From a bacterium (GTDB lineage Bacteria > Fidelibacterota > Fidelibacteria > Fidelibacterales > Fidelibacteraceae): a DNA stretch of 64,000 bases. Below the pieces are notes generated by a model that searched no databases, was not told the origin of the DNA, and saw nothing but the letters and a program-made list of their open reading frames with translations. Position 1 is the stretch's first letter. The number at the start of each line of letters is the position of its first letter. Shown here in pieces: positions 46,093 to 54,023 of the stretch. Made by a program: the position numbers and the translations under genes. The stretch spans positions 1,056,001 through 1,120,000 of the forward strand of contig OY781066.1 in NCBI GenBank assembly GCA_963676395.1, given 5' to 3'.

Positions 46093-47472
46093 TTACTTTG
46101 CTTTGACGGTAATAAAACGTTTATTACCGTTTTTTGTTTCAATTAAAATTAAAACTGTTTGGTTTTTTTCAAATTTATCGAATTCGCGATGATAATCATC
46201 AATATCCTTAACCGTTTTACCTTCAAGTGTGATAATTCTATTACCGGGACGAAGTCCTTTTTGATAGGCTTCGGATGAAGGTTTTACTTTTACGATCACA
46301 ACACCTTTTTGGGTATCTAATCCAAATTCTCTGGCCAATTCTTCACTGTTGTTCCTGACGGAAAATCCAAGATCGATATCCACTTCGGCTTCTTCGAGAT
46401 CGGCCAAAGTTTTTTCACCGGGGATCTCATCAAGTTTTACGTTAATATTCTTAATCTTTTGGTCTCTTACCAAAGTCAATTTTACGGTTTCACCGGGTGA
46501 ACGGGATGAAATATTGATCTGTAGTTCTGAAGGAGTTTCTACATCTTCGTTGTTTACTTTGATGATCACATCACCGGCCTTTAGTTTGGCTGATTCTGCG
46601 GGACTGTCTTCAACAACATCCGAAATAAGTACACCGTCAATATCATCCAAACCAAGAGATTTGGATAGATCCTGATTTAATTCTTGTATGTTCACACCCA
46701 ACCAGGCGCGTATCACACGACCTTCGGAAATTAGATCATTCATCACTTTCTTGGCAAGATCAATGGGGATAGCAAAACCTATACCATTTGAACCACCACT
46801 GCGGCTTAAAATAGCAGAATTAATACCAATCACTTCGCCATTGAGATTAACCAAAGCACCACCGGAGTTTCCCGGGTTGATCGATGCATCGGTCTGGATA
46901 TATGATTCATATGTATTCAAGCCGACACCGGAACGACCCAGTCCCGATACAATACCGTGAGTAACCGTATTACCAAGTCGGGCTGAAAAGGGTGAGCCTA
47001 TAGCAAGAACAAATTCCCCTACACTAACGTCATCGGATTCACCGAGTTCTGCCGCGGGAAGTTTATCACCATCAATTCGAAGCAAAGCAATATCGGTCTT
47101 TGAATCTCCACCGATAAGTTCAGCTTCAAATTCGCGTTTATCAGACAAAACAACGGTAATCTCTTCGGCATCCTTAATAACATGATTGTTGGTAATAACA
47201 TAACCGTCTTTTACCAAAACACCCGATCCCAAAGCAGACGAGCGGTATTCGCGTTCTTTTTTAGGTGTATCAAAACCAAAAAACTCAAAAGGAATATTCA
47301 ATTCGGCCAAGGGGTTATTGATTTTGGTTACACGCTCTGCAGTAATCGTAACAACTGAAGGTGATACTTTATCTGCAACATTAACAAACTGATCAGAAAG
47401 TGATCGTAGGTCCTGTGCGCCAAGCGGCACAAGCATAACAGCGACCAGTAAAATTGACATCCATTTTTTCAT
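46093..47472 (-). CDS. degP: DegP/DegQ (HtrA) serine protease with two PDZ domains
   Basis: TNNHV, DIAL, QTDASINPGNSGG; GGAG RBS before ATG 47472. Confidence 0.93.
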   Translation of the reverse strand: MKKWMSILLVAVMLVPLGAQDLRSLSDQFVNVADKVSPSVVTITAERVTKINNPLAELNIPFEFFGFDTPKKEREYRSSALGSGVLVKDGYVITNNHVIKDAEEITVVLSDKREFEAELIGGDSKTDIALLRIDGDKLPAAELGESDDVSVGEFVLAIGSPFSARLGNTVTHGIVSGLGRSGVGLNTYESYIQTDASINPGNSGGALVNLNGEVIGINSAILSRSGGSNGIGFAIPIDLAKKVMNDLISEGRVIRAWLGVNIQELNQDLSKSLGLDDIDGVLISDVVEDSPAESAKLKAGDVIIKVNNEDVETPSELQINISSRSPGETVKLTLVRDQKIKNINVKLDEIPGEKTLADLEEAEVDIDLGFSVRNNSEELAREFGLDTQKGVVIVKVKPSSEAYQKGLRPGNRIITLEGKTVKDIDDYHREFDKFEKNQTVLILIETKNGNKRFITVKAK

Positions 47473-47672
47473 TTGTTTTCTCCTATTCAATCGTTGTCAT
47501 AAATGAATAGAGATCGGCGAAAGTTCCAAAATTTTTAAAAAACCTCCATGACAATACCTCGAATTACGAATATCAATTAATGAATAAGAATTTTTGGGTT
47601 AGAAAAATGAATGGGAATTCTTGAATTATCAATCCGAACGACCCTCCGCCACCAAGCCCCGAAAAAAATAAC

Positions 47673-47701
47673 TTGTATAAAATGTAATTTCAGACTAAGT
47701 T
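47673..47701 (+). promoter_or_regulatory. Candidate cassette promoter (Pc-like)
   Basis: TTGTAT-N17-TAAGTT about 140 bp upstream of the first recombination point. Confidence 0.35.
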
Positions 47702-47789
47702 AACTACGAACATAACAAAAAGCTATAAAACTTGGACGTCTATCAGATAAAACAGACAGGACTAAAGTATTAAAGAGAAATAAACACAA

Positions 47790-47850
47790 TAAACAATACA
47801 TGCCATATTGGAGATATATACACAATAGGCATACACTAACGTTGTAAAAC
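47790..47850 (+). mobile_element. attI-like site / first cassette recombination point
   Basis: G^TTGTAAAAC at 47841 is the exact reverse complement of GTTTTACAAC at the cassette end (48788); upstream ATACAC direct repeats; no 131-bp attC body. Confidence 0.6.
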
Positions 47851-47865
47851 ATTAAAATGAGAGAT

Positions 47866-48786
47866 ATGAAATGGCCAAATGATAAAGAGTTTGCATTTAC
47901 GATAATAGATGATACGGATAATGCAACATTAGATAATATTGCTTCTGTTTATTCATTTTTAGCAAGTAAAAATATCAAAACCACGAAAACAGTGTGGATT
48001 TATCCTTCAAGAAATAATTTTACTGGGCAAACTATACAGAATGATGATTATTTTTCATTTCTTTTTAATTTAGAAAAGCAAGGATTTGAAATACAATTAC
48101 ATAATGTTGGAAGTGGAAAATTTAAACGTACAGAAATAATTGAAGGATTAAAAATATTCAAAGAAAAATTTGGAAGATATCCTAAAATGCATATAAATCA
48201 TTCTTCCAATCCAGATAATTTATATTGGGGTTATAAAAGATACGGTATTGTCCTAAGAAGTATAATTAAGTTGTTAAAAGGTAAAATAAGACGATTTTAT
48301 GGAGATGAAATTGAAAGTGAATATTTTTGGGGAGACTACTCCAAGGATAAGATTAAATTTATCAGAAATAGAGCTTTTAATGGTATTAACACTTTGAAAT
48401 ATGACCCTCGAATGCCATTTAAGGAAAAGCATAAGGAATATACTAACTATTGGTTTAGTTCATCTGATGGACATACAGTTGAGGAGTTTAATGATTTAAT
48501 ATCAAAATCTAATATAAACGAACTAAAAAGACAAAATGGTTTATGTATAGTTTATACTCATTTTGCTTCCGGGTTTATTGATTCTAATGGCAAACTAAAT
48601 GAAAGGTTTAAAGAAAATATAGAATATTTGTCAATTCAGAACGGATGGTTTGTACCTGCAAGTGAAATATTAGAGTATTTAATATCTCAAAAGAAAAAAG
48701 ACTATGTTAGCAGTTTTTATATTAATGTCTTGGATTTTAAATGGCTATCAAATAGGATTTTAAAGAAAATGAAATATGGACGATAA
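47866..48786 (+). CDS. Cassette 1: polysaccharide-deacetylase-like (NodB-fold) protein
   Basis: FAFTIIDDTD, GFEIQLH, HINH, VYTHF motifs; alternative start 47857. Confidence 0.6.
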   Translation: MKWPNDKEFAFTIIDDTDNATLDNIASVYSFLASKNIKTTKTVWIYPSRNNFTGQTIQNDDYFSFLFNLEKQGFEIQLHNVGSGKFKRTEIIEGLKIFKEKFGRYPKMHINHSSNPDNLYWGYKRYGIVLRSIIKLLKGKIRRFYGDEIESEYFWGDYSKDKIKFIRNRAFNGINTLKYDPRMPFKEKHKEYTNYWFSSSDGHTVEEFNDLISKSNINELKRQNGLCIVYTHFASGFIDSNGKLNERFKENIEYLSIQNGWFVPASEILEYLISQKKKDYVSSFYINVLDFKWLSNRILKKMKYGR

Positions 48787-48790
48787 CGTT

Positions 48791-48921
48791 TTACAACAAT
48801 AAATATACGTAATGCGGGGCGATTTGCTAAATTTAAACTTTGATACATTTAATAAACAAGGTAACGGTTAGATAGTAAGGAGCTTAGAAATCCCGCACTA
48901 CGCATATTCAAGCCGTTAGCG
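48791..48921 (+). mobile_element. attC site 1 (131 bp)
   Basis: R'' TTACAAC, arm AATATACGTAATGCGGG pairing with CCCGCACTACGCATATT, R' GTTAGCG. Confidence 0.85.
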
Positions 48922-48959
48922 GCAAGTTAAAGAGAAGACCCTGCAAAAAATGATGCATA

Positions 48960-50984
48960 TTGAAAAAGATTGATTTACATATTCATACTAAAGCTTCAAT
49001 TACAGATGCTGATTTTTCTTTTAGTTTAGATAAATTAAAAGAATATGTTGAAACTCTTAAAATAGATTGTATTGCTGTAACGAATCACAATCTATTTGAT
49101 TTGGAACAGTTTCAAGAGATTTTTAGAGAATTATCCTGTAAGGTTTTACCAGGTGTAGAAATAAACCTAGAGAAAGGGCATTTGTTGTTAATTTCGGAGA
49201 ATACGGAGCTTGAAGAATTTGAAAGTAAATGTAAAAAAGTTGAAATACTAATTGAAAATAAAGACGATTATATTTCTGTGGCTCAATTGACAGAAATATT
49301 CGGAGACTTGTCTAGATATTTGCTTATTCCTCACTATGATAAAGCAAAAGTTATTCGTCAAGAAACAATAGACGAACTAAGTAGTTACATTTCAGCAGGG
49401 GAAGTCGGTAGTCCGCGAAAATTTACATATTGCATTAAAAATCCACAAAGTTTAGTTCCTGTATTATTTAGCGATTTACGTTTTAAAGAAGAGATGACTG
49501 AGTTCTCTCCGCGCCAAACATTTATTGATATTGATGACACATCTGTAAGAGCCATTAAAATTTGTTTGGCTGATAAAGACAAAGTTTTTCTGACTGAATC
49601 AGAAGGTCATAGGTTTTTTCAAGTATTTGAAAATGGACAAAAGCTATCAAACGGACTAAATGTCATTTTAGGTAAACGTTCAAGTGGAAAGAGCTTTACA
49701 TTAAAAAGAATTTATAGGGATTTTGATAATGTAAAGTTTATTGAACAGTTCGAATTACTTGAAAAAAATGAAGAAAAGGATAAGAAAAGATTCAATGATT
49801 TGCTATCCACCAAACAAAATAGTGTTTCAGAGGAATATCTTAAAGAGTTTAAAGAGGTTGTCGATGATATTTTAAAGATTGACCATGTTGAAAATGAAAA
49901 GGCTGTTGAAAATTATCTTGATTCATTATTAAAAGTAGCTTCTGAAGAGGAAAAAAAGGATGTTTACTCAAAGTGTGCACTTTTCAATGAAAGTAAATTT
50001 ATTGAATCAGAAAATGAAGGTTTAAAAAGACTTATTGATTCAACCCAAATGTTAATTGACAACATTGAATATCGGGATATTATTGACAAACATGTATCAA
50101 AAGAGTCGTTACGAGAATTAATCATCGATTTGATTTTGAAATACAGAGAACTTCAAGAACTAAATCAAAAACAATTATGGGTCAACTCAATTATTTCGAA
50201 TATAAAAATAGAACTAAAGTCTAATACAGCCTATTCTTCGATTGACGAGATTGATTTTTATCAAATACAGTTTGATAAAATCAAACTATTAAAGTTTTCT
50301 GATATTGTTAGTAGCGTTAAGAAGGAAAGAATCATTAAGCAAAATGAAGTTAGGCGGTTTAAAATTGTAGCAAGCACAAAATTATTTAAAGGTGCTCAAG
50401 AACTTTTAGATAAAAGTGGAAAGAAGACTCGATTTAAAGATGCATTTGATAAATATGAAAATCCAATTGAATATTTAGATGAGTTAAAGCAAATTGAAGT
50501 ACTTCCTGAAACAGACTACTATAAGTATTTTATAGAAATAGAATACATGATTTTAAATGAACATGGAGTAGAGGTATCAGGAGGAGAACGTTCAGAATTT
50601 AATCTTTTAGAAAAAATTCAAAATGCTCATCACTTTGATATGTTGCTGATTGACGAGCCTGAATCCTCTTTTGATAATTTATTTCTTAAAAATGATGTTA
50701 ATGAACAGATTAAGGAAATTGCAAAATCAATGCCTGTGATAATTGTAACACACAACAATACTGTTGGGGCATCAATCCAACCAAATTATATACTTTATAC
50801 AAAAAGAGAGATTATAGATAAAAAAGCAGTTTATAAAATATTTTCTGGAAATCCATCTGACCCTGAATTAATGACAATTGATGGAGAAAAAATTGAGAAC
50901 TATGAAATCATGCTGAATTGTTTAGAGGCTGGGGATTCAGCTTATAATGAACGAGGAAAATCTTATGCAACACTTAAAGATTAA
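48960..50984 (+). CDS. Cassette 2: PHP phosphoesterase + ABC/SMC-like ATPase (Ppl/TrlF-related, candidate anti-phage)
   Basis: DLHIHT, TNHN, PGVE, PHY, FSD; Walker A GKRSSGKS, coiled region, SGGE signature, Walker B LLIDEPE, VTHN; TTG start. Confidence 0.85.
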   Translation: MKKIDLHIHTKASITDADFSFSLDKLKEYVETLKIDCIAVTNHNLFDLEQFQEIFRELSCKVLPGVEINLEKGHLLLISENTELEEFESKCKKVEILIENKDDYISVAQLTEIFGDLSRYLLIPHYDKAKVIRQETIDELSSYISAGEVGSPRKFTYCIKNPQSLVPVLFSDLRFKEEMTEFSPRQTFIDIDDTSVRAIKICLADKDKVFLTESEGHRFFQVFENGQKLSNGLNVILGKRSSGKSFTLKRIYRDFDNVKFIEQFELLEKNEEKDKKRFNDLLSTKQNSVSEEYLKEFKEVVDDILKIDHVENEKAVENYLDSLLKVASEEEKKDVYSKCALFNESKFIESENEGLKRLIDSTQMLIDNIEYRDIIDKHVSKESLRELIIDLILKYRELQELNQKQLWVNSIISNIKIELKSNTAYSSIDEIDFYQIQFDKIKLLKFSDIVSSVKKERIIKQNEVRRFKIVASTKLFKGAQELLDKSGKKTRFKDAFDKYENPIEYLDELKQIEVLPETDYYKYFIEIEYMILNEHGVEVSGGERSEFNLLEKIQNAHHFDMLLIDEPESSFDNLFLKNDVNEQIKEIAKSMPVIIVTHNNTVGASIQPNYILYTKREIIDKKAVYKIFSGNPSDPELMTIDGEKIENYEIMLNCLEAGDSAYNERGKSYATLKD

Positions 50985-51282
50985 TGATAACAAAGGGTTT
51001 TATCAAATAGAACCTAACCAATGGAAAGAGATTGATAAAATCGACAAGGAAGATTTGATGCTTTTATTGGATAAAGCAATAGAATCAGAGTTTGAAATGG
51101 ATAAATTTGAAGCTGATAAAATATCCAACAAAGCGCATTCTATAATTTATAGAAACCTTTATGAAAAATTCTCAGAATTGTCTGAAAACAAGAATAGATT
51201 TAAAGATGAAAGCGAATTATTGTACAAGAATGCTTTTGATAAATACAGCCAGATTGAGTCTAATGAAACTGATGAAGGATAA
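50965..51282 (+). CDS. Cassette 2: small acidic helical protein coupled to the PHP-ATPase
   Basis: GAGGA RBS before ATG 50965; overlaps the upstream gene by 20 nt; stop lies 8 nt before attC2. Confidence 0.75.
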   Translation: MQHLKINDNKGFYQIEPNQWKEIDKIDKEDLMLLLDKAIESEFEMDKFEADKISNKAHSIIYRNLYEKFSELSENKNRFKDESELLYKNAFDKYSQIESNETDEG

Positions 51283-51289
51283 AACCAGC

Positions 51290-51420
51290 TGCTAACACGC
51301 AATATACGTAAGCTGGGTGATGTAGCCAATCTAAGCCTTTGTACATTTATTCAAAATTACAGTGGTTTGATAAGTATTTTCTCCGAAATCCCAGCCTCCG
51401 CATATTGCCATCCGTTATAC
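51290..51420 (+). mobile_element. attC site 2 (131 bp)
   Basis: R'' TGCTAAC, arm GCAATATACGTAAGCTGGG pairing with CCCAGCCTCCGCATATTGC, R' GTTATAC; same length as attC1 and shares blocks with it. Confidence 0.85.
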
Positions 51421-51519
51421 ACAATTCAAAAATTATTTTCCTAAGCAGTAAAATGATGATAGAGTTTCAAACTGTGGATAAATTCGATTTTTTCTTTTAT
51501 TATAGTGGGGGATAATATT

Positions 51520-51927
51520 ATGAACAACGAACAAACAATTAAACTCGTAATTAGCAGGCTTATTGAAGAAGGCAAATTGGATGTAGTCGAAAAATCATTT
51601 TCAAAAAACTATGTCGCCCACGCAGGAGAAAAAGAGTACAAAGGACATGATTTTATTAAAAATTTTGCCGAACAGCTTCATTCTGCAATTCCCGATATTA
51701 AAGTCGTAAAAGTTGAATTCCTGAATAAATCAGGAAATATTATAACGTGGCAGAGAATATTAAGCGGGACACATAAAAAAAATATGATGAGAATTCCTGC
51801 GAGTGGCAAAAAAGTAAAATGGATTGAAATGGTGGTTAGCCGTTTTGAAAACGGAAAGATTTCTGAAGAATGGATTGTCTCAGAACTTATGGGGCAATTA
51901 TTATTAAAAGCTCCTACAAAGAAATAA
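51520..51927 (+). CDS. SnoaL-like ester cyclase
   Basis: AIPD, GTH....IPASGKKV, RFENGKI.EEW. Confidence 0.85.
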   Translation: MNNEQTIKLVISRLIEEGKLDVVEKSFSKNYVAHAGEKEYKGHDFIKNFAEQLHSAIPDIKVVKVEFLNKSGNIITWQRILSGTHKKNMMRIPASGKKVKWIEMVVSRFENGKISEEWIVSELMGQLLLKAPTKK

Positions 51928-51965
51928 TAAAAATAACAAAGAATATTGGAAAAGGGACTTATCAT

Positions 51966-52367
51966 ATGGAATACTTGGGTTCTTGTTTATGCAAAGGAAT
52001 TAAATTTAAAGTTATCGGTGATTTTGAGAGTTTCTATTTATGCCATTGCAGATATTGCAGGAAAGACACCGGGTCTGCTCATGCGGCCAATTTATTTTCT
52101 ACAACAGCAAAAATAGAATGGATAAAAACGGAAACGGAAATTAAGATATTTCAACCGCATAAAAGCAATCATGTGAAGGCCTTTTGTACAAATTGTGGTT
52201 CCGCTCTACCTAATTTGCAAATGGATGGCAAACTTTTAGTCGTTCCGGCAGGATGTTTAGATACTGAATTAGAAAAAAGACCTAATGCACATATTTTCAT
52301 TTCAAATAAAGCAAGTTGGGATGAGTCGCTGGAAAAAATATATAAATTTGAACGTTTCCCAGAATAA
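51966..52367 (+). CDS. GFA (CENP-V) family zinc-binding protein
   Basis: GSCLC, CHCRYCRK.TG, FCTNCGS, HIF...KA.W. Confidence 0.92.
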   Translation: MEYLGSCLCKGIKFKVIGDFESFYLCHCRYCRKDTGSAHAANLFSTTAKIEWIKTETEIKIFQPHKSNHVKAFCTNCGSALPNLQMDGKLLVVPAGCLDTELEKRPNAHIFISNKASWDESLEKIYKFERFPE

Positions 52368-52610
52368 TAAATATAAGTACATCTGCTCCATTTTTTTGCA
52401 GACATCGAGAAACAGCTTAATCAAGATTAATCGATTAGTATTAAAACTTAATGCTTTTTATAAGTAATGGCAGTAAATGTGGTAAATATAAAGGTTTTTA
52501 GCCCGTCTAAAACATTATTAAATATCTTTTTTGTCCCGTTGGGGCTGTTATATTTTTGGGAACGATATACTCCCGGGTTTCGAAATGTTTGACCGCAATG
52601 CGACCCTTTA

Positions 52611-54023
52611 TTATCTTCTAAGGCGATCCGTCAATCGTTCCTCCGCCATTGCGATCAGGTCTGCTGAAGTTTTTTGATGTCGCTTGATTAGATCTTTTTC
52701 ATCCAGCTCGCGGATCTCACCATTCACTACCACATGCTCACCGTTGATGATCACATGGTCGACCGGACTCATGGCAAAGTTAAAGACAATGGCGGCGGCG
52801 GGATCATGCAGTGCGCCGGAGTACTCCAGCTTATCCATGTCGATCAAATTAATGTCGGCACATTTACCGGCTTTGATCTGCCCGATGTCATCTCGTCCCA
52901 ATGCTTTGGCGCCTCCCACCGTTGCCATCCACAGGACTTCTTCGGTGTTAAGCCAATATTTGGGCTCACGGAGTCGGGAAAGCAACATGGCGTTACGGAC
53001 TTCCAACAGCATATTCGAAGAATCGTTCGATGCGGAGCCGTCAACAGCGATGCTCACATTTGCACCGGCTTCGAGCAGTTCTTTTACCCTGCAAATGCCT
53101 GAACCAAGTCGCATGTTCGAAGAGGGACAATGTGAGGTACCGATCTTCATCTTACCGGCTTCGGCGATCTCTTCATCATTTAAAAAGATGGAATGTGCAA
53201 ACCAGGCATAGGGCTTAACCCAGCCCAGAGTTTTCATATAAGCGAATGGTCGTTCGCCACTGCGCTCTATGCAAAATTCTTCTTCATCTTTGGTTTCAGC
53301 AAGATGTGTATGGATCTGCAGGCCGTGTTTCTCGGCAACCTCCACCGTCTTACGCATGGAGTCTTCGGTTACCGAAAAAGGTGAACAGGGCGCTAATGAA
53401 ATTCGCAACATAGAACCAAAAGTATCATCATGATATCTTTCCACCAGTCGTTCGATATCTTCAAAGATCGTTGCTTCACTTTGGATCACATCATCGGGTG
53501 GCAGCCCGCCGTCTTTCTTGCTTAAGGACATTGAGCCCCGCGTGGGTTGAAAACGCATACCCAATTCTTGCGCTGCCTGAATTTCGGAATCGATCAACGT
53601 TCCTTCAGCTTTTTTGGGAAACAGATACAAATGATCGGAGCTGGTAGTACAACCCGATTTCATTAATTCGGCCATAGCCGCTTTGGCGGAAATGTAAAAG
53701 GCTTCTTTGCTGATACCGCGCCAGATCTCATAGTTAGTGATCAACCACTCAAAAAGCTCTGCCTTTTGAGTGGAGTATATATTCCTCGTAAGAGTTTGAA
53801 AAAAGTGATGATGCGTATTCACAAAACCCGGTAGCACCAACATGCGCGAGGCATCGATCACTTTATCGGCTCTCCCGGTAAATTCCTCCGGTCCGGCCGA
53901 AACGATGAGATTATTCTCCATATAGATATGCCCTCCACTAAAGGTATCAAGCACATCATTTGTATTAACATCTTCTTTCATGCGACAGCACAAAAGCGGG
54001 TTTTTAATTAAGATCGAACTCAT
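52611..54023 (-). CDS. 8-oxoguanine deaminase / hydroxydechloroatrazine-type amidohydrolase
   Basis: NTHHHFFQTLTR, DHLY, RGSMS, APCSPFSV, HLAE, VDGSASND. Confidence 0.88.
   Translation of the reverse strand: MSSILIKNPLLCCRMKEDVNTNDVLDTFSGGHIYMENNLIVSAGPEEFTGRADKVIDASRMLVLPGFVNTHHHFFQTLTRNIYSTQKAELFEWLITNYEIWRGISKEAFYISAKAAMAELMKSGCTTSSDHLYLFPKKAEGTLIDSEIQAAQELGMRFQPTRGSMSLSKKDGGLPPDDVIQSEATIFEDIERLVERYHDDTFGSMLRISLAPCSPFSVTEDSMRKTVEVAEKHGLQIHTHLAETKDEEEFCIERSGERPFAYMKTLGWVKPYAWFAHSIFLNDEEIAEAGKMKIGTSHCPSSNMRLGSGICRVKELLEAGANVSIAVDGSASNDSSNMLLEVRNAMLLSRLREPKYWLNTEEVLWMATVGGAKALGRDDIGQIKAGKCADINLIDMDKLEYSGALHDPAAAIVFNFAMSPVDHVIINGEHVVVNGEIRELDEKDLIKRHQKTSADLIAMAEERLTDRLRR

Follow-up and report, generated by a model that had tools for sequence, protein, structure and literature searches.

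How can a chromosome hold an array of gene cassettes of the integron type where no integrase is encoded beside it, and which enzyme would serve such an array? This question is raised by a stretch of 64,000 nucleotides, hereafter called the window, from a bacterium of the family Fidelibacteraceae (assembly GCA_963676395.1, contig OY781066.1), which comprises bases 1056001-1120000 of a single 2.34-Mb contig and whose source genome is labelled G000 among 61 related genomes. Between degP and an amidohydrolase gene, the window contains an AT-rich insert of 5.1 kb, which had been interpreted from the letters alone (the sequence-only reading) as an integron-type cassette array assembled by an integrase that acts in trans or has been lost. 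Indeed, the insert proved to be such an array, with paired hairpin sites where they had been located. We consider it likely that the window carries a recombinase-less satellite platform, i.e. the equivalent of a CALIN (a cluster of attC sites without integron-integrases), of an integron-like system resembling the rAID-1 (recombinase-associated acquired interbacterial defence) clusters, and that this platform is served in trans by a short recombinase other than IntI.

The insert differs from its surroundings in base composition, with a GC content of 27-33% over 47.5-52.5 kb versus 40-49% in the flanks, and its five open reading frames (ORFs), as taken from the ORF list, all have one orientation, so that the earlier observation of co-oriented ORFs which are AT-richer than the flanks was confirmed. 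The array consists of an attI-like head, three cassettes (1074, 2499 and ~1115 bp) and a decayed third attC, and each cassette comprises one or more ORFs followed by an attC-type site of ~137 bp. In window coordinates, the features are the following (R1 is a covariance model described below).

46093..47490, minus strand: left flank, degP-type serine protease gene (core gene; Pfam Trypsin_2 and PDZ).
47778..47845, plus strand: attI-like head site W0, with the crossover GTT at 47841-47843; two direct 8-nt repeats, then a 10-bp imperfect hairpin in the fold.
47842..48915, plus strand: cassette 1, 1074 bp, with an ORF at 47857-48786 (309 aa).
48788..48924, plus strand (coordinates of the top strand; folding is predicted for the bottom strand): attC W1, R1 score 113.7 bits.
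48916..51414, plus strand: cassette 2, 2499 bp, with ORFs at 48960-50984 (674 aa) and 50947-51282 (111 aa).
51287..51423, plus strand: attC W2, R1 score 102.1 bits.
51415..52529, plus strand: cassette 3, ~1115 bp, with ORFs at 51505-51927 (SnoaL-like; probable ATG at 51520) and 51966-52367 (GFA family).
~52443..52535, plus strand: decayed third attC W3, with the 5' half retained, the 3' stem arm lost and R'' mutated.
52611..54023, minus strand: right flank, amidohydrolase gene (core gene; Pfam Amidohydro_1, 3.9e-62).

The lengths of the first two cassettes follow from the GTT positions 47841, 48915 and 51414 and agree with those proposed before, and the same applies to the two imperfect palindromes with shared motifs close to stop codons, which align with 80% column identity and belong to sites that start 2 and 5 nt past the stop codons at 48784-48786 and 51280-51282. 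Their length of about 131 bp, which had been regarded as long, is not unusual, because it lies within the size range of attC in chromosomal integrons. The extent given for the array (47841..52400) had to be enlarged on both sides, where the head at 47778-47845, the third cassette and the decayed third attC had been missed. Cassette 3 is bordered on the left by the GTT of W2 and on the right by a GTT at 52529-52531 within the decayed site, which was matched by nhmmer at 52457-52511 (E 2.8e-6) and partially by R1 at 52474-52512 (16.6 bits), and which over bases 52455-52505 shares 88% identity with the 5' half of A2, an attC of the main array described below. Since W3 is decayed, cassette 3 is probably fixed in place.

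Do the hairpins have the properties of attC sites? An nhmmer profile made from the two window sites, iterated once and run on the whole genome, retrieved full-length relatives at four places, namely 715-725 kb (five sites), the window (two, and a partial third at 52457-52511), 1135.6 kb (one) and 1832-1840 kb. R1 was built from a bottom-strand alignment of 11 full-length sites of G000 (alignment A2), and the attC assignments reported here rest on this model and not on that of IntegronFinder; it detects 13 sites, distributed over four arrays of the genome, at E ≤ 1.2e-5. The bottom strands of W1 and W2 score 113.7 bits (E 1.7e-27) and 102.1 bits (E 1.9e-24) with R1, the top strands 20.1 and 10.2 bits. 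The other sites of the genome needed nhmmer and the covariance model to surface; an exact-core pattern search of the genome returned, above control level, the two window sites only, and an Rfam scan of 47400-52700 at E ≤ 1 gave one sub-threshold, unrelated match and no attC family.

The RNAalifold consensus of these sites has a 5-bp outer R helix and a 17-bp inner L helix, with the AAC and GTT of the attC boxes invariant in 10-11 of the 11 own sites. In these 11 sites, 93.7% of the pair cells are paired and half of the pairs (11/22) show compensatory changes; the covariation score was reached by 0 of 500 shuffles, and slid controls were paired to 33-48%. An external set of 55 sites from 27 loci outside the model was similar (94.2% paired, 17/21 pairs compensatory, slid controls 31-52%), in an alignment (A3) that was fitted to the model and so favours the structure. 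Three G.T pairs are found in all 11 own sites, and their top-strand versions are A.C mismatches; therefore, the whole stem can form on the bottom strand only, which is the strand that is recombined in integrons. As single-stranded DNA, W1 is predicted to fold with -17.5 kcal/mol on the bottom strand (z -2.3) and -15.5 kcal/mol on the top strand (z -1.2), and W2 with -17.5 (z -2.0) and -13.2 kcal/mol (z -1.1), respectively. Extrahelical bases within the stem are a feature of integron attC; in the present family, the L stem is predicted to be unbroken in the consensus and in the minimum free energy folds, with the asymmetry confined to the spacer (6-7 nt vs 3 nt), and an extra stem base occurs in 2 of the 11 sites only (A4 and A5). 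Sites of the R1 type are present in 30 of the 61 related genomes.

How the cassettes came to lie between these sites can be read from their ends. Each cassette start had been said to pair with its own end, which holds: reverse-complementing the 10 nt at 47841 gives precisely the letters at 48788 (10/10), and the 9 nt at 48915 are complementary to those at 51288 in 8 of 9 positions. For a broader comparison, which included 57 sites from 13 arrays (three from G000, ten from other genomes), we compared the 7 nt that follow the GTT of each site with the 7 nt that precede AAC in the site after it. The 44 consecutive site pairs had on average 5.86 of 7 complementary positions, with 20 pairs being perfect and 34 reaching at least 6, compared with 3.04 of 7 when a site was paired with itself and 2.52 of 7 for 3148 non-consecutive combinations (0 of 10000 permutations). 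A cassette start is complementary to its own R'' box because a circle opened at G^TT leaves such ends. From this we conclude that the cassette units were once circles opened at G^TT, so that the pairing across the 13 arrays also supports the earlier claim of cassettes inserted as circles at this position.

Which enzyme could have handled these circles? A six-frame search of the whole genome with the integron-integrase model TIGR02249 gave at best 120.7 + 94 bits in two pieces, as opposed to a cut-off of 265, with model positions 182-238 missing. The head of the window array leads to a different candidate. Its 68 bp are identical in 67 positions to genome positions 713800-713867, which start 5 nt past the stop codon of a gene for a 279-aa tyrosine recombinase (genome 712955-713794), located 390 kb upstream of the window array. 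This is the only other copy of the head in the genome, and the window copy ends at the GTT of 47841. The two copies lead into different first cassettes, and in both the pairing with the R'' flank of the first attC is 7/7. Neither blastn nor tblastn detected a recombinase gene or remnant upstream of the window head. That the recombinase gene is itself a cassette was rejected for want of support, as no upstream GTT was seen by eye to pair with the R''-like box of the head.

The whole 279-aa protein scores highest with NF040815, a XerA/integron-integrase model (237.9 bits), and reaches 209.8 bits with TIGR02249. Its alignment to the solved IntI4 consists of two blocks that skip IntI4 residues 180-248, the region of the IntI-specific domain, for which only 25 counterpart residues are present; the catalytic motifs (R, H-x-x-R-H and Y) are in register with those of XerA and IntI4. 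Judged from these alignments, the recombinase appears to belong to the XerA/XerD/IntI branch and to lack the IntI-specific domain. Recombinase matches were found in the genome at 710-714 kb and 1394 kb only. A role as the housekeeping enzyme was rejected, since a separate true XerD (362 bits, above cut-off) is encoded 2 kb upstream of the short recombinase gene. The enzyme behind the window array is thus very probably not IntI: of the sequence-only reading, the absence of an integrase from the window and the enzyme acting in trans as the likeliest source remain, while its assignment to IntI does not, with no match in the genome above the IntI cut-off. In the mechanism that we propose, the 279-aa recombinase would act in trans on the window platform, 390 kb from its own gene, where it would fold the bottom strand of attC and exchange it at GTT with the attI-like site or with another attC.

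Next to its own gene, the recombinase has what we call the main array (L011 5955-17589; genome 712955-724589), in which the recombinase gene, the attI-like site and five attC sites follow each other on the same strand, and whose cassettes encode Abi_alpha, a 930-aa SIR2_2 protein, AAA_15 with HNH (Septu-like), an 838-aa HD-CE/HATPase protein and others. Another array (L012 2344-9646; genome 1832344-1839646, minus strand) has five R1 sites without an attI-like copy, and its cargo includes a TIR-domain protein, two S41 peptidases, a thioredoxin-like protein and other proteins without assignment. At 15.6 kb beyond the window end (L013), we observed one full attC with an 18-nt internal deletion (genome 1135637-1135754) and a half site (1139595-1139660). 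Between the R'' flank of this half site and the R' flank of main-array attC A4 there is complementarity, which hints at cassette exchange between arrays.

Is the short recombinase associated with such sites beyond G000? An orthologue with 43-82% identity is carried by 16 of the 61 related genomes (a count that includes G000). In 8 of these 16, a site of this kind follows the stop codon, and 5 of the 16 contigs end exactly at its GTT, where assemblies would break if the downstream sequence varied in the population. We further collected 68 loci with relatives of the recombinase from public genomes, mostly from named Bacteroidota (Algibacter, Polaribacter, Flavobacterium, Mariniflexile, Chitinophaga, Bacteroidales). 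R1 gave 65 matches at E < 0.01 in these loci, of which 51 are downstream of the gene and co-oriented with it, 12 upstream and divergent, and 2 arranged otherwise. Sequence ends less than 300 bp past the recombinase gene in 19 of the 68 loci, and of the 28 that have at least 3 kb downstream, 15 contain at least one match. In each of 15 arrays that were tested, a GTT lies 28-258 nt past the gene, and the 7 nt behind it are complementary to the first attC (7/7 in 12 arrays, 6/7 in 3).

A complete Algibacter genome (G061:C1:3568454-3647260) holds at least 45 R1-type sites in the 79 kb directly 3' of the recombinase gene and at least six single sites elsewhere, as counted from 150 scored candidates out of ~2283, which is super-integron scale. 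A second attI-like copy was not found in this genome, and orphan heads are therefore not universal. They do recur: on a Bacteroidales chromosome (G062:C1), where each of the two recombinase copies is followed by an array and several clusters lie at other places, two clusters without recombinase start with the attI-like site of their own genome, with 6/7 and 7/7 pairing with the first attC. One of them keeps a 39-aa remnant of the recombinase by its head, the other none. On the same chromosome, the 113 bp after the recombinase gene recur at 26 places with 73-100% identity, four of them with a spacing of 1-2 kb at 2.267-2.272 Mb, which makes the attI-like element of this genome look like a second kind of cassette-bounding site.

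Has the spacer that holds the window array been entered in other species as well? In 16 genomes of the same genus, G000 included, degP and the amidohydrolase gene lie on one contig. Of these, 14 have a gap of 118-596 bp between the two genes, G000 has one of 5.1 kb and G002 one of 4.5 kb. The insert of G002 (L035 2772-7256) is a single cassette in the opposite orientation, with a helix-turn-helix gene, a 1043-aa methyltransferase/specificity fusion and one R1 site (64.5 bits), the outer boxes of which are AAT/ATT rather than AAC/GTT and thus changed on both sides of the pair. A small GIY-YIG ORF, which G006 and G011 have in intact form, is split by this cassette. Past the junction, the first bases of the cassette are complementary to its R'' box, and the empty target is readable from the two flanks. 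In this sister species, the insertion was precise, took place independently and hit a secondary site. In G006 and G011 (L033, L038) the small GIY-YIG ORF lies between inverted repeats of ~25 nt, and this unit looks like a small mobile or homing-type element. The content of the degP/amidohydrolase spacer differs in nearly every species.

What does the window platform store? The 309-aa protein of cassette 1 matched no Pfam, NCBIfam or PADLOC family, and in the Atlas it neighbours hypothetical proteins, where DUF2334/polysaccharide deacetylase is a weak lead (0.85). The 674-aa protein of cassette 2 combines a PHP domain (Pfam) with an ABC-type ATPase and has a weak match to the NCBIfam TrlF-family ATPase. 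In PADLOC it corresponds to PDC-M49A (E 5e-293, profile 1-674 of 674), and the 111-aa protein to PDC-M49B (E 2.2e-37). The two genes are adjacent and co-oriented with a 38-nt overlap, so that both components of the system are present, and by these profile matches cassette 2 is a candidate two-gene phage-defence system. PDC systems are themselves candidates, found by 'guilt by embedding' according to passages of 10.1101/2024.01.29.577857. Cassette 3 encodes proteins that match Pfam SnoaL (5.2e-24) and GFA (7.1e-24); cassettes 1 and 3 are accessory genes of metabolic role or without assignment. The proteins of cassettes 1 and 2 each occur in 0 of 60 related genomes, a metagenome scan with the cassette 2 protein gave 214 pattern matches of which none was confirmed, and no paralogues of the cassette bodies were found elsewhere in the genome.

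Several points weigh against a platform that is served in trans. We infer the action of the recombinase in trans from co-occurrence only, and these particular cassettes are at most putatively mobile, as their proteins were found nowhere else (0/60 relatives, empty metagenome scan). The third attC is decayed, and its R'' flank is not complementary to the start of cassette 3. The presence of the 68-bp head in the spacer is not accounted for by an exchange at its own GTT, which cannot move the head itself, and no recombinase remnant is left. R1 found no match in 13 of the 28 loci in which 3 kb or more follow the gene of a recombinase relative, and the external sites were aligned in favour of the structure, as mentioned above. 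The distant orthologues (43-45% identity; G039, G043, G049, G059) are followed by other genes, and a repeat search found no arrays there. Canonical IntI occurs in 13 of the 61 related genomes, mostly at contig ends with the arrays beyond view, and G026, which has no short recombinase, carries R1-type sites 4-5 kb from an IntI fragment. Regarding the distant orthologues, a conserved gene starts directly after the recombinase stop codon in G039, G049 and G059 (L018, L023, L025). These distant orthologues may form a different functional subfamily.

Could the array be a relic, either assembled by the short recombinase or derived by copying from the main array, which is no longer acted on and has become a fixed accessory island? 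The failure of the pairing rule at the decayed third attC would agree with this, and so would the cassette genes, which are unique to G000 so that no turnover is visible; the recombinase remnant by the head of the Bacteroidales satellite further shows that platforms do decay. However, W1 and W2 score as high as the sites of the main array (102-114 vs 107-145 bits), the head differs in 1 of 68 positions from the copy beside the intact recombinase gene, and the two head copies hold different first cassettes, each with a 7/7 junction, which makes a frozen island unlikely.

The canonical integrases of the group are relevant to a further possibility, i.e. a classical CALIN, the cassettes of which were assembled by a canonical IntI that has since been lost or resided in a donor, with the short recombinase as a bystander. 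CALINs have been proposed as degraded integrons in passages of PMC9024848 and PMC4889954. The cut-off of TIGR02249 is exceeded in 13 of the 61 genomes of the phylum, and in 0 of the 33 genomes of the family to which the window belongs. It is in this same family that G026 keeps its IntI fragment (189 bits, covering the IntI-specific region). IntI could conceivably have used R1-type sites at one time, as in G026; this fragment, however, is located downstream of the two R1-type sites and co-directional with the cassettes, which is not the layout of an integron. When R1 was run on 16 loci with canonical IntI, both clear matches came from G026, and two weak ones had E values of 0.0058 (G053) and 0.88 (G037). 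The loci with long flanks, G052 and G053 (L048 12206-19773, L052 11162-19950), encode full-length IntI (413 bits) with divergent arrays of 7-8 attC sites, which form a different sequence family without a clear R1 match. The bottom strands of the canonical sites of G052 are predicted to fold with single-base stem bulges, while R1-type stems are predicted to be unbroken. Canonical integrons are hence a separate system in the related genomes. As, in addition, the window array starts with a copy of the site found behind the short recombinase gene, 51 of the 65 R1 matches are downstream of and co-oriented with this recombinase family, and the pairing between attI-like site and first cassette holds in 15 of 15 arrays, we regard a classical CALIN as quite improbable. 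That XerC/XerD acts on the sites as it does with dif-like modules, or that the palindromes are terminators or repetitive extragenic palindromic-like repeats with chance pairing, is very improbable: a true XerD does lie 2 kb from the short recombinase, and the sites directly follow stop codons, where terminators are expected, but they are 137-bp hairpins with R and L helices and not 28-bp dif-like sites, compensatory changes and wobbles on the bottom strand only are not terminator features, the circular-permutation signal is far past chance (0/10000), and the sites cluster after one accessory recombinase family and have no Rfam match.

What would a satellite platform served in trans by the short recombinase mean? 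The definition of an integron rests on IntI with its special domain, reported to be required for activity. In the present case, all the marks of an integron, i.e. covarying hairpins, a G^TT crossover, an att site adjacent to the gene, satellite arrays and contig breaks at the crossover, accompany a recombinase without the IntI domain, and the same system is present in many named Bacteroidota. The window shows that a platform can exist without a recombinase gene of its own, in a core-gene spacer that is also targeted in a sister species, and that it stores a candidate anti-phage system. Tentatively, with the odds slightly against it, this could be a second integron lineage in Bacteroidota and their kin, invisible to standard searches, with the window as a working second platform served in trans. 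The features of such a lineage, to be taken with the same reserve, would be a short recombinase without the IntI domain, an unbulged attC, strand choice by G.T wobbles of the bottom strand, an att site 3' of the gene and arrays of at least 45 cassettes. If so, one recombinase gene would feed cassette banks at distant chromosomal sites. Action in trans, if true, would also widen the range of organisms with on-demand gene capture, give the rAID clusters of gut Bacteroidales a mechanism, and add a new pair of recombinase and site that is independent of the IntI domain.

How does the array compare with the systems described so far? It falls outside the definition of an integron as applied by IntegronFinder, because the genome encodes no integrase with an IntI-specific domain. 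With integrons, the window sites share the imperfect palindrome of attC (R''/R' boxes ...AAC / GTT..., inner L boxes) and the G^TT crossover, but the stems of the window family are predicted to have no extrahelical bases. In inverted-orientation integrons, intI is co-directional with the cassettes, and the enzymes keep the IntI-specific domain. The main array and those of the named Bacteroidota resemble them in that the recombinase is transcribed towards the cassettes and the att site lies past its 3' end; the short recombinase of the main array differs in lacking this domain.

Like a CALIN, as described in passages of PMC4889954 and PMC9024848, the window has at least two attC-type sites (two intact and one decayed within 3.8 kb), co-oriented cassettes that look promoterless and no integrase nearby, with other arrays in the genome. 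It differs from a CALIN in that its genome has no canonical IntI, the stems are predicted to lack the single-base bulges of canonical sites in related genomes, an attI-like head is kept and the recombinase has no IntI-specific domain. Passages of Cury 2016 (PMC4889954) treat recombinases without the IntI-specific domain near attC as 'not IntI', and almost no integrons were reported in Bacteroidetes by IntegronFinder 2.0, according to passages of PMC9024848. Sedentary chromosomal integrons have been presented as anti-phage banks (passages of Darracq et al., 10.1101/2024.07.02.601686), and G000 likewise has cassette arrays with compact defence systems; the arrays of that work are IntI-driven and mostly from Vibrio and other Pseudomonadota, whereas those of G000 involve another recombinase subfamily and another attC family.

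The rAID-1 clusters of Bacteroidales (Ross et al., 10.1101/471110; PMC12247911) are characterized, in passages of these two sources, by a 5' tyrosine recombinase that is XerD-like, co-directional genes of low GC content and intergenic repeats 'reminiscent of integrons'; hairpin structure, G^TT crossover and satellite arrays are not described in these passages. An attC-level description of rAID or Flavobacteriaceae arrays was not found in the literature outside subscription journals and bioRxiv supplements (the latter including the motif figure, Fig. S4, of Ross et al.). According to the same passages, rAID-1 cargo consists of arrays of short immunity genes of the type VI secretion system, whereas the window cargo comprises a phage-defence candidate and metabolic-type genes (111-674 aa), in which general family scans, run with no immunity-protein library, recognised no orphan interbacterial-immunity genes. 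The rAID-1 definition includes an XerD-like recombinase at the 5' end that is at least 44% identical to the reference from B. fragilis. No recombinase gene adjoins the window array; the main array has one in this position. On the other hand, the window array does have at least two co-directional genes, a GC content of at most 41% and conserved intergenic motifs, and the short-recombinase family includes Bacteroidales members with 46-48% identity that have the same attC family downstream. Among the systems described, rAID-1 is the nearest.

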